In this document: positions 8,684 to 47,252 of the stretch, in pieces
Position numbering within the stretch: the first letter of the stretch is position 1
How the letters are laid out: every line of letters starts with the position of its first letter
Source: Dehalococcoidia bacterium
Lineage (GTDB): Bacteria; Chloroflexota; Dehalococcoidia; GIF9; AB-539-J10
Assembly: GCA_021160725.1 (NCBI GenBank)
Contig: JAGHCA010000044.1
Span: forward strand, 1 to 51,549
Length of the DNA: 51,549 nt
Reading direction: 5' to 3'
Program-made: the position numbers and the translations under genes
Notes under the pieces: model-generated
The model's input: only the letters and a program-made list of their open reading frames with translations
Databases searched by the model: none
Told to the model about the DNA's origin: nothing

Positions 8684-8685
8684 GC

Positions 8686-9782: not shown

Positions 9783-9836
9783 GTCTTTACTCTAATTATG
9801 CCATCGGTTTTTACCTGTAGGTAGGGGCTACTTGCT

Positions 9837-14313: not shown

Positions 14314-16260
14314 ATGGGCATTATCTTTACAGTGACGGAGAAGTGTAAGGGGTGCTATGCCTGTGTTCGCAACTGCCCGGTCAAGGCTATTAGAGTGAAG
14401 GAAGGGATAGCCGGAGTTATGGAGGAGAGGTGTGTTACCTGTGGCGTCTGTATCAACATATGCGCTATAGGGGCCAGAGAGGCTAAGAGCGACATAGGTT
14501 ATGTTCGCCAGCTATTGGGGCAATCCACTCCGGTAATCGCTGCCCTTTCCTCCGCCTTTACGGCAGCTTTTCCAGAAATCAGGCCGAAGCAGTTAGTATC
14601 TGCTTTGAAGAAGCTGGGGTTCAGTGAGGTAATGGAAACTGCCTTTGGTGCTGAGCTGGTCTGCCGCGAGTATGGACGAATGGTAAAGGGAAACAAAGGA
14701 AAGCCCATTCTTTCCTCTACCTGTCCTGCTGTAACTTCCCTGGTGGAAAAACACTATCCTCAGCTAATCGATAGACTGGCACCAATTGTGTCGCCCATGA
14801 TCGCCATGGGCAGGGTCATTAAATGGCGGTACAATCCTGAGGCTAAAGTAGTCTTCATTGGCCCCTGTATAGCTAAAAAAGCTGAAGCAGAGGATGAGAA
14901 AGTTGCCGGGGTCATTGACGCTGTTCTGACCTTTTCCGAGCTGAGGGAGATGTTGGCGACAAAGGAAATCGACCTCCTTTCTGAGGAGGAAGAGCAGTTC
15001 TCTGGCCCCAGGCCTCATCTCGGTCGCCTGTTCCCTGTGCCCGGGGCTTCACTTAAGCTAGCGGGAATCTCTGGTGATACCATGATAAGCGATGTCGTTG
15101 TAGCTGAGGGCATTGATCGTGCTAGCAGTTGCCTTCTGGAATTTGCTCAAGGCAAGGTCAAAACCAAGTTTATGGACATATTCTTCTGCCGGGGTTGTAT
15201 TGACGGACCAGCGATAAATAAGAGCCTAAGCCTTTGTGGACGTAGGGAAAAAATAGTTGATTATGCTTTGGAGGATGCAGATCCGGCTCGAACGGAGAGC
15301 GACATCGAGCAATATGCTGACATTGACCTCAGCCGCAAATTTACCAATCGATATACTGTGCTACGCACCCCGACCGAAGATGAGATCAACGACATCCTGA
15401 GACAAATCGGTAAGCTAAAAAGAGAAGATCAACTCAACTGTGGAGCCTGTGGATATAATTCCTGTCGAGAGCTGGCTACTGCCGTCTGTCAAGGTTTAGC
15501 AGAGCGTGAGATGTGCTGGCCTTATCTGGTCAACGAATTACAGAATACACAGGATGAACTCCTCAGGGCTGAGAAGTTAACCTCGCTGGGCCAGTTGGCT
15601 GCCTCCATTGCTCACGAAATCAATAATCCTCTGACTGGTGTACTGGTCTATACCCAGTTGCTATCAAAGAAAGTGGCTGGTGATGCTTTTAAGAGAGAAC
15701 AAGCCTTGGAGTATCTTTCCAAGATGGAATCCGAGGTAGGTCGTTGCTCCAGGATAATCCGAAATCTTTTAGATTTTGCTCGGCAAACTGAGCCAATGTT
15801 GAGGTTGGTGGATGTTAACCGGGTTATAGAACAGGTATTGGCTATGGTAGGGCATCAAGCTCAACTTCAAAACGTTGAGATTGTGAAAGAGTTTAGCCCA
15901 TCCTTGCCTAAGGTCATAGCTGATTTCGACCAGCTTCAACAGGTATTTACTAATCTCACGCTGAATGCTATCCAGGCGATGTCTGAAGGGGGTAAGCTGA
16001 CTCTGCGCACGTCCGTGGAGAATAGTCAAGTTAGGGTTGATGTCCAGGATACAGGTTGTGGTATTTCAAAAGATAACTTGAGTAAGCTTTTCACTCCTTT
16101 CTTCACCACCAAGGCAAAAGGCAAGGGTGTAGGGTTGGGATTAGCTGTAGTTCACGGGATTATTGAGAGGCACAAGGGAGTAATCAAAGTGCAAAGTGAG
16201 GTGGGGAAAGGAACCACCTTCACCGTCTATTTGGGAGGCCACAACGATGAAAAAGGTTAA
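14314..16260 (+). CDS. sensor histidine kinase with 2x[4Fe-4S] ferredoxin, [FeFe]-hydrogenase-like domain and CxxCGxxxC Fe-S domain as input
   Basis: N-terminal CKGCYACVRNCP and CVTCGVCINIC. Hydrogenase H-domain-like motifs SSTCPAV, GPCIAKKAE and FFCRGCIDGP. Also NCGACGYNSCRELATAVC. H-box SIAHEINNPL and HATPase_c (DTGCGI..GKGVGLGL). The RBS lies inside the end of the preceding gene. Confidence 0.85.
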   Translation: MGIIFTVTEKCKGCYACVRNCPVKAIRVKEGIAGVMEERCVTCGVCINICAIGAREAKSDIGYVRQLLGQSTPVIAALSSAFTAAFPEIRPKQLVSALKKLGFSEVMETAFGAELVCREYGRMVKGNKGKPILSSTCPAVTSLVEKHYPQLIDRLAPIVSPMIAMGRVIKWRYNPEAKVVFIGPCIAKKAEAEDEKVAGVIDAVLTFSELREMLATKEIDLLSEEEEQFSGPRPHLGRLFPVPGASLKLAGISGDTMISDVVVAEGIDRASSCLLEFAQGKVKTKFMDIFFCRGCIDGPAINKSLSLCGRREKIVDYALEDADPARTESDIEQYADIDLSRKFTNRYTVLRTPTEDEINDILRQIGKLKREDQLNCGACGYNSCRELATAVCQGLAEREMCWPYLVNELQNTQDELLRAEKLTSLGQLAASIAHEINNPLTGVLVYTQLLSKKVAGDAFKREQALEYLSKMESEVGRCSRIIRNLLDFARQTEPMLRLVDVNRVIEQVLAMVGHQAQLQNVEIVKEFSPSLPKVIADFDQLQQVFTNLTLNAIQAMSEGGKLTLRTSVENSQVRVDVQDTGCGISKDNLSKLFTPFFTTKAKGKGVGLGLAVVHGIIERHKGVIKVQSEVGKGTTFTVYLGGHNDEKG

Positions 16261-17602
16261 AATACTAGTGGTTGATGATGAGGCTATTGTCCGCGAGTCG
16301 CTAAGCGAATGGCTCAAGGATGTTGGCTATCAGGTTTTCGCCGCTGAAAGTGGCCCCAAGGCATTAGAGGTGATTGGGAAGGAAAAGCCGGGCATCATGA
16401 TTGCCGATCTGGTTATGCCGGGTATGGACGGTATTGAATTGATGAAAAGGGCTAAAGAGCTTCATCCTAGGATAGAGGTTATTATTATCACAGCCTATGC
16501 TAGCATCCCTACCGCCATCGCTGCTATAAAAGAAGGGGCATACGATTATATTGAAAAGCCCTTTTGCCCTGAGAGAGCCGAATTCCTCGTCGAAAAATTA
16601 GCTGAACATCAGGAACTCGTCGAGGAAAACCTCGCCCTGCGTCATAGATTGGAAGACCGTTACCGCTTTGAGAACATCATTGCTAAGAGCTCCAAGATGC
16701 AGCGGCTGATTGAGTTGATAAAGGTTGTGGGCAAAAGCAACGCCACAGTATTAATCACAGGTGAAAGCGGCACAGGGAAGGAGTTAGTAGCACGTGCCAT
16801 TCATTCTCAGAGCCATCGTCGGAACAAGCCCTTTGTCGCTGTTAGTTGTGCTGCTTTGCCGGAAAGCCTTTTGGAAAGCGAACTGTTTGGCCACGAGAGG
16901 GGTTCCTTCACCGGCGCCTACACTCGGAAGAAGGGCAAATTCGAGTTTGCCAGTGGGGGGACTCTTTTTTTGGATGAAATCGGCGAGATGAGTGCCAATA
17001 TCCAAGTACACCTGTTAAGGGTTTTAGAAGAGAAAGAATTTACTCGCGTCGGTGGCAATGAGCCACTCAGAGTTGATGTAAGAGTTATTTCCGCGACTAA
17101 TAAGGACTTAAGAAAGGCCATAGAAAAGCAAGAATTCCGAGAAGACCTTTATTATCGCCTTAATGTAGTTAACATCGAATTGCCACCCTTGAGGGAAAGG
17201 AAGGAGGATATCCCTCTCTTGGCTGAGCATTTCTTGAATAAGTTTGCTTCGGAGAATCGGAAAGAGATTACCGGATTCTCTACCGATACTGTAGAATTTC
17301 TGCTCGATTATGACTGGCCGGGCAATGTCCGTGAGTTGGAAAATGCCATTGAAAGGGCGGTCATCCTGGCTAAGGATAGCATTATCACCATTGCTGACCT
17401 GCCTCAGAAGAAGATATCGCCTGCTTATTCAACTGCGCAGAGGAAAAATCTTAAAGAAGTAGAAAAAGAGCACATCTTGAATATCCTCCGTGAAACCGGC
17501 GAGAACTACAGTCAGGCAGCTAGAATCTTGGGAATTAGCAGGATGACGCTTTACAAAAAGGCAAGGGAATATGATTTAAGTGTAAAGAAAATTAAACAGT
17601 GA
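16247..17602 (+). CDS. sigma-54-dependent response regulator (NtrC family)
   Basis: REC (MKKVKILVVDDE..DLVMPGMDG), AAA+ sigma-54 activator core (GESGTGKE, ESELFGHERGSFTGA, the latter spanning the GAFTGA-type loop) and a C-terminal Fis-type HTH. Start placed at ATG 16247 behind GGGAGG, not at 16196. Confidence 0.9.
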   Translation: MKKVKILVVDDEAIVRESLSEWLKDVGYQVFAAESGPKALEVIGKEKPGIMIADLVMPGMDGIELMKRAKELHPRIEVIIITAYASIPTAIAAIKEGAYDYIEKPFCPERAEFLVEKLAEHQELVEENLALRHRLEDRYRFENIIAKSSKMQRLIELIKVVGKSNATVLITGESGTGKELVARAIHSQSHRRNKPFVAVSCAALPESLLESELFGHERGSFTGAYTRKKGKFEFASGGTLFLDEIGEMSANIQVHLLRVLEEKEFTRVGGNEPLRVDVRVISATNKDLRKAIEKQEFREDLYYRLNVVNIELPPLRERKEDIPLLAEHFLNKFASENRKEITGFSTDTVEFLLDYDWPGNVRELENAIERAVILAKDSIITIADLPQKKISPAYSTAQRKNLKEVEKEHILNILRETGENYSQAARILGISRMTLYKKAREYDLSVKKIKQ

Positions 17603-17663
17603 CTGATTAATTATTTACATAACTCGGCAAGACGGTAGTTCCTAAGTCTGTCGCCCTAGTGAA

Positions 17664-17700
17664 GAAAACTATCCTGAATTTTCAGGATGGTTTTTTATTT
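17664..17700 (+). terminator. intrinsic terminator after the regulator operon
   Basis: ATCCTGAA-TT-TTCAGGAT palindrome (17671-17688), flanked by an A-tract upstream and GGTTTTTTATTT downstream. Confidence 0.65.
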
Positions 17701-17756
17701 CGACGGAAGGATTGTAGTTGGCTTAGATTAGAAGATTAAGATATAGGGAAAGAGAT

Positions 17757-17772
17757 TGGCAAGAAAATTGCT
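17757..17772 (+). promoter_or_regulatory. sigma-54 (-24/-12) promoter TGGCAA-N5-TTGCT
   Basis: GG at 17758-17759 and GC at 17770-17771 with canonical spacing. RBS GAAAGGAGG (17785-17793) and ATG 17801 follow at the expected distance. Confidence 0.7.
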
Positions 17773-17800
17773 ACACCAAAGGGTGAAAGGAGGTTTAGAA

Positions 17801-18868
17801 ATGGACAAAGAAGTGGTCTCAGTAAAACAAGAAAAAGAGCAGGAGGTGAATGAAATGAAACCAGTATTAATTGTTGAGGACGAAGCCATAGTACGTGAAT
17901 CGCTCAGAGACTGGCTTAAGAATGTGGGCTATGAAGTCGAAACAGCTGAGGAAGGTGAAGAAGCACTGGAGAAGATCGAGAATAAGGAATTCAGTGTCGC
18001 AGTTCTCGATCTAAGGCTGCCCGGAAAGGACGGATTGGAGGTATTGAGGGAAGCCACTGAGAAAAACCCGAAGATCAAGGGCATAGTTATCACTGCTTAT
18101 CCCTCAGTGGAAACCGCCGTGGAGGCGATGAAAATGGGTGCTATTGATTACATAGCGAAGCCATTTACCCCCGACGCCCTGGAGAGGAAAATTCAGGAGG
18201 TTCTAGGCTCGATTCAGATGAAGGTAAAACCTAAGGAAAGGAAGGTTGAGGAAGCCTCAGCGGAACTCACGGCAGTTAAGGAGGCTGGCATTGAGGAAGC
18301 TATAGTGATAACTGAAGAAGAGATCCCTACTCATCTGGAGGAAGGTCGAGCTTACTTCGAAGCGGGCCGCTACCAGGAGGCATTAAGAGAATTTCAGGCC
18401 ATTTTACAGGTTGCTCCGGGACACATAGAAACTCGAACCTGGGTCCAGAAGACCAAGAAAGCATTGGCGAAGCCGAAAGTAGAGGTACCTGAAGGAGAAG
18501 GTGCTGTTGAGGAAGGGGCGAAAGTCTGTATTTGGGCGAAGATGGGGATAGTCTCTCACAGGTACTGCACTCGGGATTATGACTGCTTGACCTGTGAGTT
18601 TGACCAGATGATGCAGGAGAAAGTGGCCTCCGGTGAGACTCCTGAGCTTGATGAGGCTCTGGAGAAGTTTAAGAACCTACCAGGATCCCAGAGACTTTGT
18701 CGTTATTCCCTAAAGGGCGACGTTTCGTACCGCCTTTGCTCTCGTGTCTTTCAATGCGCGACCTGCGAATTCGGGCAGCTCATGGAGGATGTCCTGGAGC
18801 GAAAGCTAGACAAGTTGTCTGCCCGCCGCCAGATTCTGAGTAAGAAGCGGTCGACTCTTAAAGACTGA
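17801..18868 (+). CDS. response regulator: REC + TPR-like segment + duplicated Cys4 (C..C..CxxCEFxQ) C-terminal domain
   Basis: REC (KPVLIVEDE..VLDLRLPGKDG..ITAY..KPF). TPR-like GRAYFEAGRYQEALREFQAILQVAPG. Two homologous Cys4 units (CIWAKMGIVSHRYCTRDYDCLTCEFDQMMQE and CRYSLKGDVSYRLCSRVFQCATCEFGQLMED). ATG 17855 is an alternative start. Confidence 0.8.
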   Translation: MDKEVVSVKQEKEQEVNEMKPVLIVEDEAIVRESLRDWLKNVGYEVETAEEGEEALEKIENKEFSVAVLDLRLPGKDGLEVLREATEKNPKIKGIVITAYPSVETAVEAMKMGAIDYIAKPFTPDALERKIQEVLGSIQMKVKPKERKVEEASAELTAVKEAGIEEAIVITEEEIPTHLEEGRAYFEAGRYQEALREFQAILQVAPGHIETRTWVQKTKKALAKPKVEVPEGEGAVEEGAKVCIWAKMGIVSHRYCTRDYDCLTCEFDQMMQEKVASGETPELDEALEKFKNLPGSQRLCRYSLKGDVSYRLCSRVFQCATCEFGQLMEDVLERKLDKLSARRQILSKKRSTLKD

Positions 18869-19023: not shown

Positions 19024-20172
19024 GTGAAAACAATAAGTCCTTATAAAGAAGCTACGGATGTAATACTTGAGGCGGGCGGTGAGCCTCTTAAATTGTGTTA
19101 TCAGTGTGGCCTTTGCACTGCTGTTTGTCCCTGGAACGTAGTGCGCAGTTTCTTGGTTCGCCGCATCATGCATGAAGCTCAGCTTGGGGTAACTGATTTT
19201 GACAGCGAGGATGTCTGGACTTGTGCCACTTGTCGAGCTTGTGTCCAGCGTTGCCCTCGGGGCGTTGAGATAATAGATGTCGTGAGGGCTGTACGTCGAG
19301 TTGTGGCTAGTCTCGGCATTGGTGTTGTCCCTGATGCTCTTCGGATATCAGCTAAGAACATCGCCGGCGTAGGTAATCCCTTTGGTGAAGCGCCAGAAAA
19401 GCGTAATGACTGGGCTAAAGATCTGGGGGTGAAGGAGTTCGTCCCGGGTACTGAAATACTTTATTTCCCTTGCTGTGTTCCCTCCTATGATCCTGATGTG
19501 AAAACAGTAGCTCGATCTGTTGCCACGATCTTCAATAAGCTGGGGGTTGATTATGGCCTGATAAGCACAGAGGCAAGATGCTGTGGCGAGTCAATTAGGA
19601 AGGCTGGGCATGAAGACACTTTTCAAAACCTGGCTCACAATAATATTAACCTCTTTGCCAATAATGATGTCAAAACTGTGGTAGTTTCCTCCCCACACTG
19701 CTACCATACTTTCAGAAATGAGTATCCCGAGCTTGGAGGCAAATTCGAAGTAATTCATATTACCCAATACTTAGCTTCACTTATCGACGAAGGAAAATTG
19801 AAGTTCTCTAAGACGATGAATAAAAAGGTAATCTATTCTGATCCTTGCTATTTGGGGAGGCATAACAATGTCTATGACGAACCTAGAAAGATATTGCAGA
19901 GTATTCCCGGCCTGGAATTAATAGAATTTCCCGATGCCCGCGAGAATGCTCTTTGTTGTGGTGGTGGCGGCGGTAGAATCTGGATGGATACACCGAAAGG
20001 GGAAAGGTTCTCTGATATAAGGGTAGAGCAAGCTGTAGAGAAAGGCGCTGATATTATAGCCTTGGCGTGTCCTTACTGCTTCCTCAACTACAGGGATAGC
20101 GTGCTATCTATGGGCAAGGCAGAGACTATGCAGGTTAGAGATATCGCTGAGCTTGTTGCTGAAGCAGTGTAA
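19024..20172 (+). CDS. HdrD-like fused HdrC/HdrB protein (2x[4Fe-4S] + two CCG domains)
   Basis: 382 aa. Carries CYQCGLCTAVCP and CATCRACVQRCP, then CCG-domain motifs (PCCVPS, ARCCGES, DPCYLGRH, ALCCGGGGG, ACPYC). GTG start with a weak RBS. Confidence 0.85.
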   Translation: MKTISPYKEATDVILEAGGEPLKLCYQCGLCTAVCPWNVVRSFLVRRIMHEAQLGVTDFDSEDVWTCATCRACVQRCPRGVEIIDVVRAVRRVVASLGIGVVPDALRISAKNIAGVGNPFGEAPEKRNDWAKDLGVKEFVPGTEILYFPCCVPSYDPDVKTVARSVATIFNKLGVDYGLISTEARCCGESIRKAGHEDTFQNLAHNNINLFANNDVKTVVVSSPHCYHTFRNEYPELGGKFEVIHITQYLASLIDEGKLKFSKTMNKKVIYSDPCYLGRHNNVYDEPRKILQSIPGLELIEFPDARENALCCGGGGGRIWMDTPKGERFSDIRVEQAVEKGADIIALACPYCFLNYRDSVLSMGKAETMQVRDIAELVAEAV

Positions 20173-20188
20173 TAGCAGGGGAGCCAAA

Positions 20189-23100
20189 ATGGAAGAGGTA
20201 AAAATTGGTGTTTATGTCTGCTGGTGCGGCTTAAATATCGCTGGCACAGTGGATTCTGAAGAGGTGGCCAGGTATGCTGGAACCCTGCCCCATGTGGCGG
20301 TTGCCCGTGACTATAAGTATATGTGCTCCGATCCTGGACAGGATCTCATTAAGAATGATATTAAGAGGTTGGGGATTAATCGAGTTGTGGTTGCTTCCTG
20401 CTCACCGAGATTGCATGAACCCACGTTTCGCAAAGCTTGCCGGGATGCCGGACTGAACCCATATCTATATGAGCACGCAAATATCAGGGAGCACTGCTCT
20501 TGGCCCCATGCCACAGACAAGAATCGAGCCACAGAAAAGGCCAAGGACCTTGTACGTGCTGCAGTAAGGCGTGTCTATTATCAAGAACCTCTGGAGATTA
20601 AGGAGGTTCCGGTGAATCCCAATGTCTTGGTTGTGGGGGGTGGTATTGCTGGCATTCAAGCTGCTCTGGATATCGCTGATGGGGAGAAGAAAGTCTACAT
20701 GGTGGAACGGGACGCATCCATTGGTGGACATATGATTCAGCTTGATAGGACATTCCCCACTCTAGATTGCTCAGAGTGTATTCTCACTCCCAAGATGACC
20801 GATACTGGTCATCATCCTAACATCGAGTTAATGACCAACAGCGAAGTAGAGGAGGTTTCGGGGTATATCGGCAATTTCAATGTCAGGATCAGGAAAAAGC
20901 CCAGGTATGTCGATGTCGATAAATGTAACTCATGCGGTGAATGTGCCAAGGTGTGCCCTGTTGAAGTGCCCGATGAGTTTGAGATGGGCTTGAGTATGAG
21001 GAAAGCAGCATATTTACCTCTTCCTCAGGCTGTTCCCGCCGCTTTTGCCATTGACAAAAGAGGCACTGCGCCCTGCCGCATTGCTTGCCCCGCCGGTGTT
21101 AATGCTCAGGGCTACATCGCCCTTATTTCCCAGGGCAAGTTCAAGGAGGCTCTTGAGTTAGTGAGGAGAGCTATGCCATTTGCTGGAGTCCTGGGGCGTG
21201 TTTGTACTCATCCCTGTGAACTCGAATGCGAGCGAGGGAAGTTTGATGAACCCGTCAGCATCCGTGCTTTGAAACGCTTTATAGCTGACTATGAGTTGAA
21301 GACAGAGAGAGAGAAGGTGGTTCCCATTGAGACAACAAAAGATAGCAAGGTGGCTGTTATCGGTTCTGGCCCTGCCGGTCTTGCCTGTGCTTATGATTTG
21401 ATTAGAGAGGGTTATGCTGTTACCGTATTTGAGTCTCTGCCTCGGGCAGGCGGACTGCTTAGATATGGTATCCCTGAGTATAGGTTGCCCAAGGAGGTAC
21501 TTGATAACGACATAAGTTATATACAGGAATTAGGAGTAGAGATTAAAACGAAGTCACCAGTGGAGGATCTTGCCGAGGTTTTCAATCAGGGATATGCGGC
21601 CATCTTTATTGCCAGCGGTGCCCAAGGAAGCCAGAAAATGGGCATACCCGGTGAAGAAACGAGCGGTGTAATTCATGCCCTTGATTTTCTAAGAATGGTT
21701 AATGCTGGAGTGGACATCAAGTTAGGCAATAAAGTAGTGGTTGTCGGCGGTGGTAATGCTGCCATAGATGCTGCTAGGGCATCTTTACGACTTGGAGCCA
21801 GGGAAGTTACTGTTGTTTATCGCCGCTCTCGTGACGAAATGCCTGCTATAAGCAGCGAAGTTGAGGAAGCGGAGCATGAAGGAATTAAAATCCATTTTCT
21901 GGCCACACCCACCAAAATCCTGTCCAGAGATGGCCAATTGTCGGCTATAGAATGTATCACGATGAAGCTGGGTGAACCAGATGCCAGCGGTCGCCGTCGT
22001 CCTGTAGCTGTCAAGGGGACGGAATTCACCATGAATGTTGACAATGTCATCATTGCAATCGGTCAAACTGTGGACAAGACGGCACTGCCGAAGGAGCTTA
22101 ATTACACTAGTTGGGGCACACTGGAGGTTGATCCCGTCACCTTGCAAACCCATATTGCTGGTGTGTTCGCTGGCGGCGACGTAGTTTCTGGACCGGCTGA
22201 TGTCGTGGTAGCGGTTGCCGCTGGCAAGGAAGCAGCTATTTCCATTGATCGGTATCTAAGAGGAGTCAGTCTAACCGAGGAAAGGCAGGTAACACCGAAA
22301 CGTGTGGAAAACGTATCAAAGGAAAGAGCCCAGCTAAAAGCGAGAGCTTCTACCCCGCTGCTTAAGCTTGATGAAAGGAAAGGCTCCTTCGCTGAGGTTG
22401 AACTAAGCTTTGATGAAAAGACGGCAATTGAGGAGGCCAAACGCTGTCTGAACTGTGGCGTATGCTCGGAATGTTTGGAATGCGTGAAGGTCTGTGAGCA
22501 AGGGGCAATTAATCATGAAATGCAAGATGAGTTCGTTGAGGTCGAGGTAGGCTCGATGATTCTAGCTACTGGCTACCAGCAGTTTGACCCCAGTGTCATA
22601 CCTCAGTATGGATATAAGAAGTTCGATAATGTCCTGACCGGACTTGAATTCGAAAGGATAACCTGTGCAGGAGGGCCAACTCAAGGACGGATTCAACTCA
22701 AGGATGGTAGAGAACCGGAGAGTGTAGCCATAGTGCATTGTGTGGGCAGCCGGGACCAGAACTACCATGAGTATTGCTCTAGAGTATGCTGCATGTATGG
22801 ACTCAAATATGCCGAATTGATAAAAGAGTTTACCAAAGCAGAGGTATATGAATTTTATATTGACATGAGATGTTTTGGTGAGGCTTTTGAGGAATTCTAT
22901 AAACGTGTTTCCGAGATGGGAGTCAATTTCATCCGAGGAAAGGTGGCTAACATTACCGACCGGGTGATGGGCGAAGAGGAGAGGGGGAAATTAATTGTCA
23001 CAGCAGAGGATACGTTACTGGGAAAGATGATACGTGTCCCTGTGGATATGGTTATCCTGTGTGCGGCCCTAGAGGCACGCTCTGACGCGGCTGATGTGGC

Positions 23101-23554
23101 GAGCCTTTTTACCATAGGCCAAAGAGGAGACGGCTTCTTCTTGGAAACCCATCCTAAGCTTGCTCCAGTAAACACGCCAACAGATGGAGTTTTCATTGCT
23201 GGGTGCTGCGAAGCACCAAGAGACGTCCCTGATACTGTGGCGCAGGCTTCGGCAGCAGCATCCAAGGCTTTGTCATTGATAAGTAGAGGCAAGGTAACCA
23301 CTGAAGCAGCTGTGTCGTATGTGGATGAATCTATTTGCCATGGATGTGGCCGCTGCGAGGAAATCTGTACTTTTCATGCCCCCTCGATTATCAGAACGGA
23401 TGGACGCTTGGTTTCTAGCATAAACGAAGCTCTCTGTAAGGGATGTGGAGCATGCGCTGTTGTGTGTCCTACAGGGGCAGCACAAATCAAGCACTTCAAT
23501 ATGCAGGAAATAGAGGGTCTGGTCGACGGCTTGCTGGAGGTGCACCGTGGCTGA
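20189..23554 (+). CDS. HdrA-type flavoprotein with inserted GltD/NfnB-like NAD(P)H-flavin module
   Basis: 1121 aa from ATG 20189. The HdrA N-domain (VYVCWCGLNIAG), FAD motif VVGGGIAGIQAAL, DCSECILTPKM, CVGSRD..YCSRVCCMY and the C-terminal 2x[4Fe-4S] are collinear with the paralogue at 29946. Between them sits a GltD-like block (CPAGVNAQGY..GRVCTHPCELEC, VIGSGPAGLACA, VVGGGNAAIDAAR..VYRRS). Confidence 0.85.
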   Translation: MEEVKIGVYVCWCGLNIAGTVDSEEVARYAGTLPHVAVARDYKYMCSDPGQDLIKNDIKRLGINRVVVASCSPRLHEPTFRKACRDAGLNPYLYEHANIREHCSWPHATDKNRATEKAKDLVRAAVRRVYYQEPLEIKEVPVNPNVLVVGGGIAGIQAALDIADGEKKVYMVERDASIGGHMIQLDRTFPTLDCSECILTPKMTDTGHHPNIELMTNSEVEEVSGYIGNFNVRIRKKPRYVDVDKCNSCGECAKVCPVEVPDEFEMGLSMRKAAYLPLPQAVPAAFAIDKRGTAPCRIACPAGVNAQGYIALISQGKFKEALELVRRAMPFAGVLGRVCTHPCELECERGKFDEPVSIRALKRFIADYELKTEREKVVPIETTKDSKVAVIGSGPAGLACAYDLIREGYAVTVFESLPRAGGLLRYGIPEYRLPKEVLDNDISYIQELGVEIKTKSPVEDLAEVFNQGYAAIFIASGAQGSQKMGIPGEETSGVIHALDFLRMVNAGVDIKLGNKVVVVGGGNAAIDAARASLRLGAREVTVVYRRSRDEMPAISSEVEEAEHEGIKIHFLATPTKILSRDGQLSAIECITMKLGEPDASGRRRPVAVKGTEFTMNVDNVIIAIGQTVDKTALPKELNYTSWGTLEVDPVTLQTHIAGVFAGGDVVSGPADVVVAVAAGKEAAISIDRYLRGVSLTEERQVTPKRVENVSKERAQLKARASTPLLKLDERKGSFAEVELSFDEKTAIEEAKRCLNCGVCSECLECVKVCEQGAINHEMQDEFVEVEVGSMILATGYQQFDPSVIPQYGYKKFDNVLTGLEFERITCAGGPTQGRIQLKDGREPESVAIVHCVGSRDQNYHEYCSRVCCMYGLKYAELIKEFTKAEVYEFYIDMRCFGEAFEEFYKRVSEMGVNFIRGKVANITDRVMGEEERGKLIVTAEDTLLGKMIRVPVDMVILCAALEARSDAADVASLFTIGQRGDGFFLETHPKLAPVNTPTDGVFIAGCCEAPRDVPDTVAQASAAASKALSLISRGKVTTEAAVSYVDESICHGCGRCEEICTFHAPSIIRTDGRLVSSINEALCKGCGACAVVCPTGAAQIKHFNMQEIEGLVDGLLEVHRG
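21062..22440 (+). other. GltD/NfnB-like insertion within the HdrA hybrid
   Basis: Boundaries come from aligning the protein by eye with the uninterrupted paralogue (29946..31934). Collinearity is lost after ..AIDKRG and resumes around ..EEAKRCLNCGVC. Confidence 0.7.
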
Positions 23555-23990
23555 GTTTGAGCCTAAGATTATCGTTTTTGCATGTAACTGGTGTACCTAT
23601 GCCGCAGCCGATCTAGCCGGAACGAGCCGAGTTCAATATCCTCCTAATGCCTATATCGTCAGGATGATGTGCAGCGGGATGATAAATCCCAGCTATGTTC
23701 TTAGAGCCTTTGAAGATGGTGCAGACGGAGTTATAGTCTCTGGATGTCATTACACTGATTGCCATTACATCGATGGACCGGTAAAGTGCGATGCCATGTT
23801 TGCCAAGCTAAAGAGGTTAGTACATATTCTTGGCTTGGAGGACGAGAGGCTAAAGCGCGAGATGATATCTACCTCCGAGGGAACAGTATTTGCTAGAGTG
23901 GTTAGGGAGTTCGTAAGCGAGCTTAAGAGGCTAGGGCCTTCGCCTTTTTCATCTTTAAGAAATTCAAGAAAGGAGAAGGCAGTGGCTTGA
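23547..23990 (+). CDS. mvhD: MvhD (methyl-viologen-reducing hydrogenase delta subunit/FlpD family)
   Basis: 147 aa. Carries FACNWCTYAAADLAG, MCSG and GCHYTDCHY. GTG start in an 8-nt overlap (GTGGCTGA) with the hdrA stop. Confidence 0.9.
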   Translation: MAEFEPKIIVFACNWCTYAAADLAGTSRVQYPPNAYIVRMMCSGMINPSYVLRAFEDGADGVIVSGCHYTDCHYIDGPVKCDAMFAKLKRLVHILGLEDERLKREMISTSEGTVFARVVREFVSELKRLGPSPFSSLRNSRKEKAVA

Positions 23991-25153
23991 GTTTAGAGGA
24001 CATTATTCAAGAGACGAAAACCTATTACTGTCTGGAATGTGGCAAATGTACAAGTATATGTCCTGTCGCCAGATATGACCCAGCATTCTCTCCTCGGGCG
24101 ATGATTGAGAATGCTCTATTGGGACCTGAAGATGACTTGGTATTCAACCGAGAACTTTTTTCCTGCTTAACTTGTTACACTTGTCAACAGAGATGTCCCA
24201 GTGATGTCGATTTTCCTGTATTTGTGCGCAAAGCCCGCACCATAGCCCAAGATAATGGACAGCACGGAATTTGTGCCCACTCGGGGCAGTTGCAATCTCT
24301 GGCCAGGCTTATGACTAGCCCCGACATTAAGCAAAGGAGATTGGAATGGCTATCTGATAAATACCGCACCTCCGATGACTCCGATGTTCTTCTCTGGGTG
24401 GGGTGTGCTCCATATTTTGAAGCCATCTTTGAGGATATTGAGTTTAGAGCTCTTGATATCACTGAGGCCAGCTTGAAAATCTTGAATCTTCTGGGAATAG
24501 AGCCCAAGCTGCTTCCAGATGAGAAATGCTGTGGGCATGATGTGGTTTGGACTGGGGATGTAGAGACATTTAAGAAACTAGCCGAGCATAATGCGACCCA
24601 AATAAAAGAATCCGGGGTGCAGAAAATAATCTTCTCCTGCCCTGAAGGCTACCGAACATTGAAGCTGGATTATCCAAACTATGGCTTTGATGTTGGTTGT
24701 GAGTTACAACATATCTCTGAATTCTTGGCGGACAGAATCGAAAAGGGCGGCGTGAAGTTTAATGAAGTGAAAAAAAGGGTAACTTATCAGGATCCATGTA
24801 GGTTGGGAAGGCATCTCGGTATATATGATGCCCCCAGAAAAGTACTTAAATCTATTCCTGGCATAGAATTTGTCGAGATGCAATATAGTGGATGGGATGC
24901 TATTTGCTGTGGCACCAGCGCCTGGACTAACTGCGACTCGTATTCCAATATGATACGGGCGGAAAGGTTATCTGAGGCAACTGCCACCAAGGCTGAGACA
25001 CTCATAACATGCTGCCCCAAATGTCAAACCCATTTCAGATGCGCCATGACAGATAAGGGAAAAGAAAAGCGGTCGATGCCAAGTATTGAAGTTATGGATT
25101 TAGCAAACCTGGTAGCAAATGCTATTGAGGAAGGGAGTAATCTTAGCAAGTAA
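23987..25153 (+). CDS. HdrC/HdrB-like fused Fe-S/CCG-domain protein
   Basis: 388 aa. Carries CLECGKCTSICP and CLTCYTCQQRCP, plus CCG-domain motifs (EKCCGHD, QDPCRLGRH, AICCGTSAW, CCPKC). TTG start overlaps the mvhD stop (TTGA). Confidence 0.85.
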   Translation: MSLEDIIQETKTYYCLECGKCTSICPVARYDPAFSPRAMIENALLGPEDDLVFNRELFSCLTCYTCQQRCPSDVDFPVFVRKARTIAQDNGQHGICAHSGQLQSLARLMTSPDIKQRRLEWLSDKYRTSDDSDVLLWVGCAPYFEAIFEDIEFRALDITEASLKILNLLGIEPKLLPDEKCCGHDVVWTGDVETFKKLAEHNATQIKESGVQKIIFSCPEGYRTLKLDYPNYGFDVGCELQHISEFLADRIEKGGVKFNEVKKRVTYQDPCRLGRHLGIYDAPRKVLKSIPGIEFVEMQYSGWDAICCGTSAWTNCDSYSNMIRAERLSEATATKAETLITCCPKCQTHFRCAMTDKGKEKRSMPSIEVMDLANLVANAIEEGSNLSK

Positions 25154-25155
25154 TA

Positions 25156-27915
25156 ATGAGCAACAGGGAAAACGGACAGAAATCGGTGCTAGTAATTGGT
25201 GGTGGCATAGCGGGGATCCAGGCTTCGCTGGATCTAGCGAATATGGGCTTTAAGGTATATTTGGTGGAAAAATTGCCCAGCATCGGGGGAAGGATGGCGC
25301 AACTGGATAAGACTTTCCCTACTAATGATTGTGCCATGTGTATTTTGGCACCTAAGATGATTGAAGCGAGTACACATAATAACATAGAGCTTTTAACTTA
25401 TTGTGAAGTAGAAAAAGTTTCCGGGGAAGCAGGGAAATTTGAGGTCAAGGTAAAGAAAAAGTCATCTTTTGTCGATTGGGACAAATGTACAGGGTGCGGC
25501 CTCTGTATCGAAGGCTGCCCTGTCATTCTGCCAAATGAATTCGATCAAGGGATAGGAAAAAGAAAAGCTATATACATGCTATTTCCTCAGGCTGTTCCCA
25601 AGAAATGTGTTATAGACAAAAGGGAAGACCGCCCCTGTAAAGCGGCTTGCATGGATGCCTGTCCAGTTCATACTAACGTACCTGGGTACATCAAACTCGT
25701 TGCTGAAGGAGAGTTCAAAGAGGCTTATAAGCTTATAAGGGAGACAACCCCCCTGCCTGCATGTGTTGGCCGAGTATGCTATGCACCTTGTCAGGATGTC
25801 TGTAATCGCGGTGAAATAGATGAACCATTGTGTATCCGCGACATTAAGCGAGTTCCCTCGGATCAATGGAGTATCGAGGAACTTGAAGTACCGCCAATTA
25901 CAAAGACGGATAAAAAGGTAGCAGTTATAGGCTCGGGACCTGCAGGTCTTGCCGCTGCCAATGACCTTGCTCTAAAAGGGCACAGTGTGACTATCTTTGA
26001 GGCTCTTCCTGAACCCGGAGGTATGCTTCGCGTTGGCATACCGGAATATCGACTTCCCAAGGAAATTTTACGCCAGGAGATAGGCTACATTCAGAAACTT
26101 GGCGTGGAGGTAAAAACGGGCATTCGAGTCGGTAAAGATATCACCCTCGAAAAATTAAAAAAAGACTACGATGCCGTTTTCATTGCTATTGGGACACACG
26201 GTGGCATGAAGCTTGGGGTAGAGGGTGAAGATATTCCCGGAGTAATGGAGGGGATAGGATTTCTCCGCGCTGTAAATCTCGGGGAAAAGATAGATGTTGG
26301 AAATAGGGTAGCAGTGATTGGCGGAGGTAATACAGCTATAGATTGTGCCCGCACAGCAAAGCGCCTGGGAGCAAAAGAGGTGACCATTGTTTACCGCCGT
26401 TCTCGCGCTGAGATGCCAGCTTCCGCGGAGGAAGTGACAGCAGCCGAAGAAGAGGACATAAAGATCGAGTTTCTGACTATTCCAAGCCGCTTCTCTTCTG
26501 AGAATAAAAAGCTTGCCAAGATGGAATGTGTACGCATGAAGCTCGGGGAACCAGATGCCAGCGGGCGCCCTCGACCTATTCCCATTGAGGGTTCTGAATT
26601 TATTATTTCGGTGGATACAGTGATCACTGCATTGGGGCAGACTCCAGAAGCAGATTTTGTTAAACAGTCAGGAGTTTCGCTTTCCAAGAAGGGCACGATA
26701 GAAATTGATGCCAAGACTGGGGTGACCAGTGTTGAAGGAGTATTTGCTGGAGGTGATGTAGTTACAGGACCTGCTTTCGTGATTGATGCCATAGCGGCTG
26801 GGAAAAAGGCTGCTCGCTCTATGGATCAGTATTTGAATGGACAACCTCTTGAGCCAGAGGAAGAATGGAAGGAACCAGAGAAGCTGTCCCAGAAAGAGAT
26901 AGAGGATCTGAAGAAACGCTTTCCTTCCAGAAATAGAGTGGGGATGAGGAGGGAGCCAGCTAAGAAAAGAATCCAGGACTTTCGTGAGGTTGCTCTGGGG
27001 TATTCCTTAGAGGAAGCCTTAGAGGAAGCTTCACGCTGTTTGGCGGGACAAACAGAAGGGTGTATAGAATGCCATGAATGTGAACGACGATGCGAGCCAA
27101 AAGCAATAGTGTATACGAAGAAGGATGAAAGCATCGAGCTAAAGGTAGGCGCGATAATAGTTGCTTCAGGGCTTGGTTTATATGATATTTCAGCGCTACC
27201 AGAATATGGCTATGGCAAAATAAAAAACGTGATTAGCGCTATGGAATTTGAGAGATTGACTGCAGCATCTGGGCCTACTATGGGAGAACTCAGGCGTCCT
27301 TCGGATGGCAAGATACCTGAGAATATAGCTTTTATCCAATGTGTCGGCTCCCGCGATTTCAGGCATAAAGCTTATTGCTCCAGTGTCTGCTGTATGCATT
27401 CAACTAAGGAGGCAATGCTGGCTTTCGAACATCATCCGGGAACAAGATCCTTCATCTTCTACATGGATATGAGGGCTGTGGGCAAAAGATTTCAGGAATA
27501 TATTGCCAGGGCTAAGCAAGAATACAATGTCACTTATATCAGGAGTCGTCCCGGGAGGATTGAAGTTAATCCTGATAACGACAATCCTATTATCTGGTAT
27601 GAGGAAACCTCCAGTGGAGAAGTAAAGAAATTTGAGGTAGAGTTGGTAGTTCTTGCTCAAGCCATGATTCCTCAAATCACCCGGGAGTTGGCAGAAATAC
27701 TAGAAATAGAGTTAGACGAAGATGGCTTTGTGAGGACTGCAGATAGATTTCTGCAACCGCTGGACACTACAAAGCCAGGCATTTTTACCTGTGGCTATGT
27801 CCATAGCCCGCGGGACATCCCAGATTCGGTGACCCAGGCCTCTGGGGCAGCAGGCAGAGTAGCTGAAGAGATTGCTTCATCCCGATTGAATCGGGACTCG
27901 CAAGGAGGTAACTGA
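25156..27915 (+). CDS. HdrA-GltD hybrid lacking the HdrA N-terminal and C-terminal ferredoxin domains
   Basis: 919 aa. Starts directly at the FAD motif (VLVIGGGIAGIQASL). Has NDCAMCILAPKM and CTGCGLCIEGCP, a GltD block (CPVHTNVPGY..GRVCYAPCQDVC, VIGSGPAGLAAA, VIGGGNTAIDCAR..VYRRS), then CVGSRD..YCSSVCCMH. Ends after ..PRDIPDSVTQASGAAG. Confidence 0.85.
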   Translation: MSNRENGQKSVLVIGGGIAGIQASLDLANMGFKVYLVEKLPSIGGRMAQLDKTFPTNDCAMCILAPKMIEASTHNNIELLTYCEVEKVSGEAGKFEVKVKKKSSFVDWDKCTGCGLCIEGCPVILPNEFDQGIGKRKAIYMLFPQAVPKKCVIDKREDRPCKAACMDACPVHTNVPGYIKLVAEGEFKEAYKLIRETTPLPACVGRVCYAPCQDVCNRGEIDEPLCIRDIKRVPSDQWSIEELEVPPITKTDKKVAVIGSGPAGLAAANDLALKGHSVTIFEALPEPGGMLRVGIPEYRLPKEILRQEIGYIQKLGVEVKTGIRVGKDITLEKLKKDYDAVFIAIGTHGGMKLGVEGEDIPGVMEGIGFLRAVNLGEKIDVGNRVAVIGGGNTAIDCARTAKRLGAKEVTIVYRRSRAEMPASAEEVTAAEEEDIKIEFLTIPSRFSSENKKLAKMECVRMKLGEPDASGRPRPIPIEGSEFIISVDTVITALGQTPEADFVKQSGVSLSKKGTIEIDAKTGVTSVEGVFAGGDVVTGPAFVIDAIAAGKKAARSMDQYLNGQPLEPEEEWKEPEKLSQKEIEDLKKRFPSRNRVGMRREPAKKRIQDFREVALGYSLEEALEEASRCLAGQTEGCIECHECERRCEPKAIVYTKKDESIELKVGAIIVASGLGLYDISALPEYGYGKIKNVISAMEFERLTAASGPTMGELRRPSDGKIPENIAFIQCVGSRDFRHKAYCSSVCCMHSTKEAMLAFEHHPGTRSFIFYMDMRAVGKRFQEYIARAKQEYNVTYIRSRPGRIEVNPDNDNPIIWYEETSSGEVKKFEVELVVLAQAMIPQITRELAEILEIELDEDGFVRTADRFLQPLDTTKPGIFTCGYVHSPRDIPDSVTQASGAAGRVAEEIASSRLNRDSQGGN
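25624..27040 (+). other. GltD/NfnB-like insertion within the second HdrA hybrid
   Basis: Same position and motif order as the insertion at 21062-22440. Confidence 0.7.
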
Positions 27916-27916
27916 G

Positions 27917-29596
27917 GTGGATGAACCTCGTATTGGAGTTTTTGTTTGTCATTGCGGCATAAATATCGCGGCGTATGTCAATGTCCCAGAACTTGTTGAA
28001 TATGCCAAGGGGCTACCGAATGTAGTGCATGCTGAGCGTAATTTGTTTACCTGCTCTGAGGAAGGGATTTCAGCGATTAAAAGAGGCATTAAGGAATATA
28101 ACTTGAATCGGGTCCTGGTAGCTTCCTGTACACCTAGAACCCATGAGCCGCTCTTCAGGGCTGCTTGCGAAGATGCGGGCTTGAACAAGTACCTTTTTGA
28201 GTTTGTTAACATAAGAGATCAATGCTCCTGGGTGCATATGCGTGAGCCTGAGAGGGCTACAGAAAAGGCTAAAGACCTTGTAAGGATGGGAGTAGCCAAA
28301 GCTAGATTGCTGGAGCCGCTGGAGGAGATTGAGGTCAAGGTAGCTCCTTCTGCTTTGGTGATTGGAGGTGGGGTTGTTGGAATGGAGGCAGCTTTGAACT
28401 TGGCTAGGCAGGGCTTTGATATTCATTTAGTGGAAAAGGAACCAGAACTTGGGGGGACCCTTCGCAGCGTGTATAAACTTTTCCCCACGAATCAAGAAGC
28501 AACAAAGTTAATCAAACTGTTCGTCGAACAAATTGAGAAGCATCCCAAGATTAAGACCTATCTCTCGTCTAAAGTGAAGGAGGTAACTGGATTTATCGGT
28601 AACTTTGATGTCAATCTGGATGGGAAGGGAGGAGCGAGTAAATTCAATGTAGGTACTATTGTAGTGGCTACCGGGGCTGATAAGTTGAAGCCGGTAGGCC
28701 AATACGGCTACGGTAAGATGTCGAATGTCATCACTCAACTGGAGCTGGAGGAGCGTATGAAGAAAGGGGAGCCTTTGGGCCAGAATGTTGTGATGGTCAA
28801 TTGTGTAGGAGCGCGGATTCCCGAGAGAACTTATTGCAGTAGAATCTGCTGCATGACGGCAATAAAGAATGCCTCTCTCATTAAGGAATCAAACCCTGAA
28901 GCAAGAGTCTGGATACTGCACCGGGACCTTATGACTTATGGTGTGGACTTTGAGAAATATCAGCGAAGAGCCATGGAGATGGGGGTCAGATTTATTAGAT
29001 ATAGCTTAGAGAGTCCTCCTGAAGTTGTCGGGGACGGGAAAGTTGAGAGAATAAAGGTGTACCACGAGCTGTGGGGAAAGGACATAGAACTTCCCTGCGA
29101 TATGCTTGTTTTAACCACTCCTCTTATCGCTGGTGAGGATAATCAGGATATATCCAAGATGCTAAAAGTTTCCTTAGACGAGTTTGGTTTCTTCTTGGAA
29201 GCACATTTAAAACTCCGGCCTGTAGAATTCGCCATGGACGGCATTTACATTTGCGGCTCAGCACGCTGGCCCACAGATGTAGCTGAAGGAATTTCTCAAG
29301 CCTTCGCAGCTGCTTCAAAGGCAGCAGGCCCTCTTAGGTTGGGTTATGTCAAACCGGAGGCGATAAATGCCTGGATTGATGAAGATAAGTGCTCAGGCTG
29401 TGGGATTTGCGAACTTTTATGCCCCTTTCAAGCTATTGAGCTGCAGCCTAGAGATGATAGAAGGGTATCCCATGTCAGTGAAGTTGTGTGCAAGGGGTGT
29501 GGCACCTGTAGTGCCGCCTGTCCTTCGGGAGCAATTATTATGCACCACTTCACAAACGAGCAAATTCTAGCTCAGATAGAAGCTTTGTTCAGCTGA
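27917..29596 (+). CDS. HdrA-like protein with N- and C-terminal domains but no inserted ferredoxin or DCxxC pair
   Basis: 559 aa. Has the N-domain IGVFVCHCGINIAA, FAD motif LVIGGGVVGMEAAL, CVGAR..YCSRICCMT, and the C-terminal CSGCGICELLCP and CKGCGTCSAACP. At the DCxxC position it reads FPTNQEAT. GTG start 7 nt after AAGGAGG. Confidence 0.85.
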   Translation: MDEPRIGVFVCHCGINIAAYVNVPELVEYAKGLPNVVHAERNLFTCSEEGISAIKRGIKEYNLNRVLVASCTPRTHEPLFRAACEDAGLNKYLFEFVNIRDQCSWVHMREPERATEKAKDLVRMGVAKARLLEPLEEIEVKVAPSALVIGGGVVGMEAALNLARQGFDIHLVEKEPELGGTLRSVYKLFPTNQEATKLIKLFVEQIEKHPKIKTYLSSKVKEVTGFIGNFDVNLDGKGGASKFNVGTIVVATGADKLKPVGQYGYGKMSNVITQLELEERMKKGEPLGQNVVMVNCVGARIPERTYCSRICCMTAIKNASLIKESNPEARVWILHRDLMTYGVDFEKYQRRAMEMGVRFIRYSLESPPEVVGDGKVERIKVYHELWGKDIELPCDMLVLTTPLIAGEDNQDISKMLKVSLDEFGFFLEAHLKLRPVEFAMDGIYICGSARWPTDVAEGISQAFAAASKAAGPLRLGYVKPEAINAWIDEDKCSGCGICELLCPFQAIELQPRDDRRVSHVSEVVCKGCGTCSAACPSGAIIMHHFTNEQILAQIEALFS

Positions 29597-29706
29597 TAGA
29601 TAATTTGAACCCAAATGCAGCAAGTGCTCAGTATTGTATCTAGAGAGACTTCAGGAGTGAGAATTCATTCTTAGTGGACTCATTTGGAGGAGGGCCACAG
29701 TTGAAT

Positions 29707-29726
29707 TGCGTAAGTTTGGTATTATG
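29707..29726 (+). repeat. direct repeat copy 1 (TGCGTAAGTT[TGGT]ATTATG)
   Basis: Repeated at 29851-29866 without the TGGT. Both copies lie in the 349-bp gap before hdrA. Confidence 0.5.
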
Positions 29727-29850
29727 TTCTGTGGCGGAAGCAGAGTGGGTATTGCGCCGATAATGCTGATGGCTGGGATTCCAAGATGGGCGGTAATCGG
29801 ATTATCTCCGGGTTGCCTGCAAATCGGATACTTTGTATCTTGTATTTAAC

Positions 29851-29866
29851 TGCGTAAGTTATTATG
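29851..29866 (+). repeat. direct repeat copy 2 (TGCGTAAGTTATTATG)
   Basis: See copy 1. A second short direct repeat, AATCGGAT, occurs at 29795-29802 and 29822-29829. Confidence 0.5.
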
Positions 29867-29945
29867 ATTTTCCCTAGCTTGGCAGTAAAGGGGTGGTTTG
29901 ATACGACATTATGCAATGAACTGTGGTTAAAAAGTGACTGTTCAT

Positions 29946-33510: not shown

Positions 33511-33568
33511 ATGCAGCTTGCCTCGACTTTGTCAGGGAGGGTAGAAAAGTAAGGTCTGGAGGCTAGTA

Positions 33569-34447: not shown

Positions 34448-34449
34448 AA

Positions 34450-37425: not shown

Positions 37426-37439
37426 GTTTTCACCTCTTT

Positions 37440-37976: not shown

Positions 37977-38001
37977 GTTAGAAACTCCTTCTTTTCAATT
38001 G

Positions 38002-39993: not shown

Positions 39994-39995
39994 GT

Positions 39996-43085: not shown

Positions 43086-43094
43086 TGCACTCTC

Positions 43095-45802: not shown

Positions 45803-45812
45803 GAGGATTGCA

Positions 45813-46259: not shown

Positions 46260-46260
46260 G

Positions 46261-47229: not shown

Positions 47230-47252
47230 ATTAGATAGGAAAGAGGTGTACT

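Follow-up and report, generated by a model that had tools for sequence, protein, structure and literature searches.

HydS proteins (group C, M2f [FeFe]-hydrogenases) carry a C-terminal Cx2Cx4Cx16C motif that was defined for them (PMC8163306), and a sensory role is called putative even for their PAS-type members (PMC8924675). Forms with other outputs are on record: HydDB has an entry 'C1, histidine kinase-linked (putative)' (PMC5037454), a 'Group C3' enzyme adjoining a group A3 hydrogenase in Ca. Lernaella was seen to contain a kinase domain (PMC9324843), clostridial sigma-54 activators were observed to have Fer4, Fe_hyd_lg_C and FeS inputs (Nie et al. 2019, PMC6615313), and FeFe group C hydrogenases have been reported in Chloroflexi (bioRxiv 10.1101/2021.08.23.457424). 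None of the kinase-fused group C forms has been characterised biochemically. We analysed 51,549 nucleotides (nt) from a Dehalococcoidia bacterium (GCA_021160725.1, contig JAGHCA010000044.1; hereafter the window, to which coordinates refer unless another locus is named) encoding a histidine kinase of 648 amino acids (aa) that a sequence-only reading had proposed as a candidate H2 or redox sensor with a [FeFe]-hydrogenase-like input. We interpret the kinase as an iron-sulphur (Fe-S) redox sensor that does not rely on a canonical H-cluster, a reading that has in our judgement roughly an even chance of being right. New, as far as alignments and locus comparisons indicate, are a one-residue deletion in motif L3 of the kinase-fused members, a Dehalococcoidia branch that lies outside the hyd-gene setting and has lost the A-P-S loop of the [2Fe] pocket, and a four-gene module conserved in Dehalococcoidia together with its -24/-12 promoter.

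By domain matches and alignment, the kinase takes its input from a complete [FeFe]-hydrogenase module of HydS type (group C), which is fused straight to an intact HisKA-class kinase core (Table 1). The ferredoxin domain, the C-terminal Fe-S domain and the HisKA/HATPase core proposed in the sequence-only reading were all matched by Pfam, and the four motifs it quoted are all found in the translation, where CGACGYNSC...C spans aa 376-401 with the exact Cx2Cx4Cx16C spacing. Its description of a soluble kinase with neither PAS nor transmembrane input also agrees with Pfam, which finds no PAS domain in the 648 aa, and with a Kyte-Doolittle scan in which the top 19-residue window is only 1.29, indicating the absence of a membrane helix. 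The assignment of the central domain to the hydrogenases holds both in the full-profile hidden Markov model match to PF02906 and in the alignment to solved enzymes. An AlphaFold model of the kinase (79 homologues) reached a predicted local distance difference test score of 85-97 across aa 60-340, and Foldseek matched this model to the [FeFe]-hydrogenases 8a6t, 6ttl, 7p8n and CpI at E values of 1e-14 to 1e-17 as well as to histidine kinases; the top Protein Data Bank (PDB) match of the kinase core is ZraS (9jfj, E=6.5e-49). In 120 homologues, all eight ferredoxin-domain cysteines are invariant and those of the C-terminal Fe-S domain are conserved. The kinase-core residues H434, N547, N551, D579, G581, G583, G605, G607 and G609 are invariant. 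Helices span residues 402-423 and 425-455 of the model, with C401 at the helix start and the phospho-accepting His434 further along. The exact protein is annotated in the database as 'MAG: 4Fe-4S binding protein [Dehalococcoidia bacterium]'.

When the kinase is aligned with solved group A hydrogenases (equivalents in CpI numbering), T136 falls at C299, C137 at C300, G183 at M353, C185 at C355, K188 at K358, E191 at E361, F290 at M497, C292 at C499 and C295 at C503. The earlier claim that the ligand cysteine is kept and the proton-relay cysteine replaced by threonine is thus borne out at C137 and T136. Collinearity with [FeFe]-hydrogenases was also claimed and stands for the domain overall, but not for L3, where the last two cysteines, spaced Cx3C in catalytic enzymes, are brought to CxxC by the deletion of one residue. 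The four ligands of the [4Fe-4S]H cubane (C137, C185, C292 and C295) are invariant in the 120 homologues and in every related group; across the Dehalococcoidia family the proton-relay position is T, N, S or A, and the M353 equivalent is Gly. Scores against NCBI's hydrogenase families stay under their cut-offs (TIGR04105, 224 against 450 bits; TIGR02512, 112 against 406 bits).

For the pocket of the [2Fe] subcluster we used a reference of 100 sensors, consisting of PAS-type HydS and kinase sensors linked to HydA, and compared it with 121 Dehalococcoidia sequences. The Dehalococcoidia family retains 44 of the 49 columns that are at least 95% identical in the reference, including every cluster cysteine, S323-P324, the G-P-C triplet, K358 and E361. 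The clear loss is at positions 79-81, equivalent to A230-P231-S232, two residues of which (A230 and P231) are among those nearest the H-cluster in CpI (PMC10147833). This A-P-S loop is 97-99% conserved in the reference; it reads S-S-A in the kinase and S-[S/A/T]-x in its family (S in 99%, then S, A or T, then a variable residue), and is gone in 120/120 family members. Small departures also occur at G245 and K367, and the equivalents of S232, Q325 and M497 vary in Dehalococcoidia whereas they are fixed in the HydA-linked kinases; for the latter two these kinases have invariant M and L, against M/T/A and F/C/Y/H in the much narrower Dehalococcoidia family. In the Geobacter-type activator fusions and the Smithella/Syntrophorhabdus kinases, not only A-P-S but also K358 and P354 are gone. 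By these residue patterns the Dehalococcoidia sensors are intermediate between the loop-keeping and the lysine-less branches, since one pocket element has been lost and the others kept.

A family search with the sensor module (aa 1-409) matched 1014 representative clusters at E<1e-30, of which the best 150 align over the whole module. These 150 were sorted by L3 type before a Pfam domain scan: 67 have Cx3C, are ~570 aa long, carry only a PAS domain and are canonical HydS, whereas 68 have CxxC and are fused straight to outputs (HisKA plus HATPase in 36, Sigma54_activat AAA+ in 14, GGDEF in 4); a third L3 form, CCxGC, is likewise fused to kinases. A pattern scan of species-representative genomes confirmed at least 570 relatives among the 600 matches listed, and the best 80 loci span >20 phyla. 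The kinase-fused HydS class is therefore very common, large and multi-phylum, and, as had been said of it and as the HydDB C1 entry attests, it is already recognised. We considered whether the L3 deletion is a sign of lost H-cluster binding and rejected this, since kinases of the CxxC type share operons with hydGEF and HydA; in particular, the CxxC-spaced sensor of locus L003 adjoins hydGEF, so the deletion is compatible with an H-cluster. By raw identity the nearest kinases are the loop-keeping ones of L003-L005 (47-51%), that of L003, at 51%, being the closest outside Dehalococcoidia among the best 80 loci. A neighbour-joining tree grouped Dehalococcoidia as sister to the loop-less Geobacter and Smithella clades; we did not rely on it because raw identity points to L003-L005.

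Locus context separates the loop-keeping from the loop-less sensors. NuoE-NuoF-HydA triads flank the sensor gene in 48/81 loci, and their HydA genes bear canonical MPCxxKKxE and ExMxCPGGCxxG motifs, indicating HydABC-type enzymes; hydG, hydE and hydF also occur in many sensor loci. In 31 of the 48 group A HydA genes beside sensor kinases (L006, L009, L010, L013, L028 and others) L1 reads TSCSP or SSCSP rather than TSCCP, so that one of the two adjacent cysteines is replaced by serine. L003 (uncultured Clostridia) has hydG-hydE-hydF at 6229-9999, directly upstream of the CxxC-type sensor kinase and ending 1 nt before its start, with NCBIfam equivalog scores of 533, 397 and 517 bits, all above cut-off. 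Loci of Kuenenia, Planctomycetota, Myxococcota, Calditrichota and Bacteroidota show a similar linkage of maturases and sensor. In L003-like loci the two seem to make up a single unit, and kinases inside hydGEF/hydCBA clusters are almost certainly matured.

For quantitative comparison we used 62 loop-keeping and 18 loop-less loci with flanks of 10 kb. A group A HydA and/or HydE, HydF or HydG gene lies within this distance in 47/62 loop-keeping loci (76%) and in 0/18 loop-less loci (Fisher p=3e-9), the latter comprising 5 Dehalococcoidia loci, 8 Geobacter-type activator fusions and 5 Smithella/Syntrophorhabdus/Aminicenantes kinases. For Dehalococcoidia alone the count is 0/5 (p=0.0016), and neither hydEFG nor HydA was found within the 51.5-kb window or in the four further Dehalococcoidia loci. 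When the L003 HydG protein served as query, no Dehalococcoidia-labelled match occurred among the best 120 (Thermotogota, Planctomycetota and others), a result that is uninformative either way, and a search for published work on hydEFG in Dehalococcoidia found nothing relevant.

What surrounds the Dehalococcoidia sensors instead is a module of four genes. It occurs in five distinct loci, namely the window, L001 (72% identity), L002 (53%, from a closed chromosome), L082/L083 and L084, in the common order sigma-54-like protein, kinase, NtrC-type activator and REC protein, from which L001 departs in having its REC gene upstream. The sequence-only reading had described the kinase as coupled to its sigma-54-like and NtrC neighbours. 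This is supported: the stop codon of the sigma-54-like gene and the kinase ATG, which has AAGGAGG upstream, are 2 nt apart, and the activator ATG at 16247 overlaps the end of the kinase gene by 14 nt, both kinase and activator having Shine-Dalgarno sequences. The sigma-54-like gene lies directly upstream of the kinase also in L001, L002, L082 and L084. Its designation as a sigma-54-like factor is apt for the DNA-binding domain and RpoN box, to which PDB sigma-54 chains match at aa 210-361 only; no other sigma-54 domain is recognisable, Pfam giving no match to a core-binding or activator-interacting domain and the N-terminal 210 aa having no significant match. The 372-aa protein may be a minimal or private sigma-54. 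In the activator the key residues are intact and the GSFTGA loop is present.

The fourth protein may be a second substrate of the kinase. At its C-terminal end a Cys4 motif, C-x12/13-C-x5-C-x2-C-E-F-[DG]-Q, is present twice, and the eight cysteines are conserved; there is no Pfam match to the motif, and no family was found for this C-terminus. Elsewhere (Table 1) the motif makes up a stand-alone protein, serves another histidine kinase as input and forms part of a HydA N-terminal Fe-S/GcvH-like fusion. It has the appearance of a metal-binding signalling module, not described before, that is associated with HydABC-like and Hdr complexes.

The REC gene is set apart from the three genes before it by a predicted terminator and a sigma-54-type promoter (Table 1). 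All five loci (the window, L001, L002, L082 and L084) retain the hairpin after the activator gene, which shows compensatory changes, and TTGGC[AG]-N6-TTGC occurs upstream of the REC gene in 5/5, out of a total of 22 matches in 1.38 Mb of sequence on both strands. Translation probably starts at the ATG at 17801, behind AAAGGAGG. A second, degenerate copy of the element, TTTCGACGGAAGGATTGTAG, lies at 17703-17722, where L082, L084 and L002 have the intact element, and in L001 an intact copy at about 7150 is followed by a degenerate one; the degenerate copies in these two loci suggest a tandem duplication of the promoter.

The promoter-led gene is followed directly by NuoE-NuoF genes in L002 and L003 and by the Hdr-like cluster in the window, and the REC gene is solitary in L082 and L084. 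Because the genes behind it differ among loci, the REC-TPR-Cys gene is, on this comparison, the conserved target of the promoter and the redox-enzyme genes are variable passengers. In the 155 nt between the REC gene and the Hdr cluster (18869-19023) no terminator is predicted on the + strand, so that the Hdr-like cluster may form the downstream portion of the sigma-54 transcription unit. The Hdr, Hox-like and Mvh-like operons were also checked for canonical sigma-54 promoters of their own, but the intergenic regions contain none and GG-N10-GC elements occur only before the REC gene; no sigma-54 element precedes either [NiFe] hydrogenase operon or lies in the internal Hdr gap. The regulon proposed in the sequence-only reading is thus partly supported, for the REC gene and, tentatively, through the missing terminator, for the Hdr cluster, but not for the [NiFe] operons.

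Table 1. Coordinates of the kinase gene, its domains and motifs, and the surrounding features. Positions are those of the window unless a locus handle (L002, L003) is given.
Feature	Position	Strand	Basis or detail
Sensor histidine kinase with HydS-type hydrogenase input, 648 aa	14314..16260	+	Pfam, alignments, AlphaFold, Foldseek; ATG start
2x[4Fe-4S] ferredoxin domain	14332..14478	+	Fer4 dicluster, aa 7-55; C11, C14, C17, C21 and C40, C43, C46, C50
H-domain, Fe_hyd_lg_C PF02906, aa 74-299	14533..15210	+	E=1.4e-54; profile positions 3-245 of 245 covered
Altered pocket loop S79-S80-A81, where A-P-S is expected	14548-14556	+	Residue statistics
Motif L1, SSTCP, within H-domain	14713-14733	+	SSTCPAV, aa 134-140
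Motif L2, GPCIAKKAE, within H-domain	14860-14886	+	aa 183-191
Motif L3, FFCRGCIDGP, within H-domain	15181-15210	+	aa 290-299
C-terminal Cx2Cx4Cx16C Fe-S domain (C376, C379, C384, C401)	15430..15519	+	PF04060 FeS, aa 373-402
Kinase core: HisKA aa 425-492, HATPase_c aa 537-640	15586..16233	+	Pfam
Short sigma-54-like protein, 372 aa	13193..14311	+	PF04552, E=1e-20, aa 214-361
NtrC-type response regulator/enhancer-binding protein	16247..17602	+	REC PF00072, AAA+ PF00158 with GSFTGA, HTH_8 PF02954
Terminator hairpin ATCCTGAA/TTCAGGAT, then T-run, after activator gene	17671..17700	+	Predicted
Sigma-54-type -24/-12 element TGGCAAGAAAATTGCT	17757..17772	+	One mismatch to TGGCAC-N5-TTGCW; ~29 nt before ATG 17801
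REC-TPR protein with two C-terminal Cys4 repeats	17801..18868	+	Pfam REC and TPR; first gene behind the sigma-54 promoter
Hdr-like cluster: HdrD/CCG, HdrA-GltD fusions, MvhD, DHODB-type FeS subunit, GltD	19024..35871	+	Pfam
[NiFe] group 3 hydrogenase operon: NuoE, NuoF-GltD, NuoG/FdhA-like subunit	35989..43625	-	Neighbour only
HdrA-MvhD-MvhG-MvhA type [NiFe] hydrogenase operon	43985..48716	+	Neighbour only
Cys4 motif copies outside the window	L003 14051-14416; L002 19011-20489; L003 16762-18045

We favour, by a narrow margin, an Fe-S redox sensor because the pocket loop is lost and linkage to hyd genes is missing. H2 sensing as the sequence-only reading had stated it is not supported by the comparison (hyd linkage in 0/5 against 47/62 loci, A230-P231-S232 lost, no hydEFG in the window); with both loop and hyd-gene context gone from the Dehalococcoidia branch, it is unproven. 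In the redox-sensor scheme, the chain of four Fe-S clusters would report reducing power and set autophosphorylation, the signal being the redox poise of an electron donor pool, for example ferredoxin or the neighbouring Hdr/[NiFe] complexes; in the AlphaFold model the path may run via the helix from C401 that carries H434. The co-translated NtrC-type activator would receive the phosphoryl group, as perhaps would the REC-TPR-Cys protein, and the activator together with the co-encoded sigma-54-like factor would fire the promoter at 17757, which would transcribe the REC-TPR-Cys gene and, in the window, probably the Hdr-like cluster behind it. Tentatively, and at somewhat less than an even chance, the branch would record the passage of an H-domain to an Fe-S redox sensor without [2Fe], a bacterial signalling counterpart of Nar1/NARFL, with the Geobacter- and Smithella-type sensors further along, and would, with its own minimal sigma-54, control Hdr/[NiFe] electron-bifurcating complexes via the hitherto undescribed REC-TPR-2xCys4 protein.

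Several observations weigh against this interpretation, and most of them bear on its strongest competitor, a true H2 sensor, which we regard as a serious possibility, though one that is rather more likely to be wrong. There, hydEFG elsewhere in the genome would install a complete H-cluster, H2 oxidation would reduce the Fe-S chain or shift the H-domain conformation, and the kinase and NtrC/sigma-54 would tune the Hdr/[NiFe] electron-bifurcating complexes to H2 supply. The four cubane cysteines, K358, E361, S323-P324 and P354 are strongly conserved: K188 (K358) is retained in 97% of 120 homologues, and S160-P161 (S323-P324), G183-P184 and the F417 equivalent are retained in the Dehalococcoidia family. 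The [2Fe] subcluster may therefore still bind, since the other loop-less clades lost K358 and P354 and Dehalococcoidia kept both; the loop contacts, moreover, may be made by the backbone, so that Ser could be tolerated. The closest loop-keeping relatives are co-operonic with hydGEF despite their CxxC spacing, and the neighbouring [NiFe] enzymes metabolise H2, which would make a logical signal for them. Replacement of C299 and a Gly at M353 are found in characterised HydS as well (PMC8163306, PMC10055695), and the occurrence of group C in Chloroflexi (bioRxiv 10.1101/2021.08.23.457424) also speaks for H2 sensing. What argues against an H2 sensor is that A-P-S is lost throughout (120/120) and further pocket positions are relaxed, that none of the five Dehalococcoidia loci has HydA or hydEFG nearby as 76% of loop-keeping loci do, and that the window lacks hydEFG. 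Absence from 10-kb flanks says nothing on the rest of the genome, and active archaeal [FeFe]-hydrogenases occur without known maturases (PMC11216029); for direct H2 activation to survive, another part of the genome would have to encode hydEFG. The proposed redox-sensor mechanism has weak points of its own. The C-terminal cluster of TamHydS keeps its redox state under H2 (PMC13104023), so that signalling by way of that cluster into the kinase helix is insecure, and the case for read-through from REC to Hdr is solely the absence of a predicted terminator.

Two further explanations appear much weaker. The clusters might sense oxidants or their own integrity, the kinase being switched when O2, NO or a shortage of iron damages or oxidises exposed Fe-S clusters, so that the oxygen-sensitive Hdr and hydrogenase complexes are protected; the signal would then not be metabolic reducing power. 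Fe-S-based sensing of O2 and NO is well established in other regulators such as FNR and NsrR, and a protein with four Fe-S clusters and no small-molecule binding domain, encoded beside oxygen-sensitive enzymes, would fit it; we nevertheless judge it unlikely, given that the locus has no oxidative stress genes and that ancestry and family context point to hydrogenase operons and not to stress regulons. That the kinase is a catalytic hydrogenase fortuitously fused to a kinase is improbable in the extreme. H-domain homology is the sole point in its favour, against which stand the absence of the proton-relay cysteine (T136; T/N/S/A in the family), the replacement of M353 and M497, the sub-threshold TIGR04105 and TIGR02512 scores and the very low activity of similarly altered HydS enzymes (PMC10055695, PMC6984386).

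The surroundings agree with the earlier description of a kinase beside hydrogenase/Hdr operons, as both the Hdr-like and the [NiFe]-hydrogenase operons were confirmed. A mobile 'island' was considered and rejected: the flanking genes are housekeeping (argH, argG, dnaB, rplI, fabD, nusB), and the fabD-nusB synteny is kept in L001. The Hdr-like cluster contains two very large HdrA-like/GltD-like fusions of 1133 and 919 aa (20153-23554 and 25156-27915), and the minus-strand operon a NuoF/GltD-like fusion of 1029 aa (39996-43085). After the Mvh-type operon and before another MvhD gene (48861-51137 region) lies a second two-component pair, a GAF histidine kinase (48861-50105) with a single-domain receiver (50154-50537). 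In L002 a gene at 17013-18014 joins a response-regulator receiver domain with N-terminal Fe-S domains of NuoG/HydA type and follows NuoE-NuoF, the usual place of HydA.

Of the putative sensory [FeFe]-hydrogenases, the characterised TmHydS and TamHydS are without measurable enzymatic output. Kinase-fused members offer a direct readout in autophosphorylation and phosphotransfer, and nature has provided an experiment in the kinases embedded in hydGEF/hydCBA, the loop-less Dehalococcoidia sensors and the branches that also lack the pocket lysine. This contrast between branches inside and outside hyd clusters, combined with the direct kinase output, makes HydS signalling experimentally accessible, and could reveal which pocket residues decide [2Fe] insertion and whether an H-domain works as a plain Fe-S redox sensor. 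Dehalococcoidia are abundant in the anoxic subsurface, where the module is a conserved candidate regulator of Hdr/[NiFe] energy metabolism that has a short sigma-54-like factor dedicated to it and a defined promoter.

Compared with known systems, the sensor module resembles HydS (Thermotoga maritima TmHydS), with which it shares the 2x[4Fe-4S] N-terminus, the short H-domain, the four cubane cysteines, the replaced C299, the Gly at M353 and the C-terminal Cx2Cx4Cx16C motif; aa 1-405 align with PAS-type HydS representatives at 35-45% identity. Unlike M2f sensu stricto, the kinase has no PAS domain, its Fe-S domain running straight into the kinase helix, its L3 is CxxC and not Cx3C, A-P-S is lost and no group A hydrogenase adjoins it. 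The fusion architecture and L3 (CxxC or CCxGC) are those of other kinase-fused group C proteins (HydDB C1; 'Group C3' of Ca. Lernaella), which elsewhere lie beside hydCBA and often hydGEF, keep A-P-S and are followed by small REC proteins, whereas in Dehalococcoidia a sigma-54-like gene precedes the kinase, an NtrC-type activator follows it and the neighbours are Hdr/[NiFe] operons. The Fer4, Fe_hyd_lg_C and FeS sigma-54 activators (Clostridiales; Geobacter/Desulfuromonas type) likewise feed the same sensor module into sigma-54-dependent transcription, those of the Geobacter type also without A-P-S and without hyd genes nearby; they differ in being one-component, with the sensor fused to AAA+, and the Geobacter type also lacks K358 and P354. 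Eukaryotic Nar1/NARFL is a precedent for an H-domain with Fe-S clusters and no [2Fe] subcluster, but it has another domain set, a role in cytosolic Fe-S protein assembly and no signalling output. Finally, the outline recalls HoxBC-HoxJ-HoxA of group 2b [NiFe] enzymes, in which a crippled hydrogenase acts through a histidine kinase on an NtrC-family activator of hydrogenase genes (Table 1 of PMC5037454; PMC5665086); there, however, metal site and fold are unrelated, and the sensor and the PAS-linked kinase are separate proteins.

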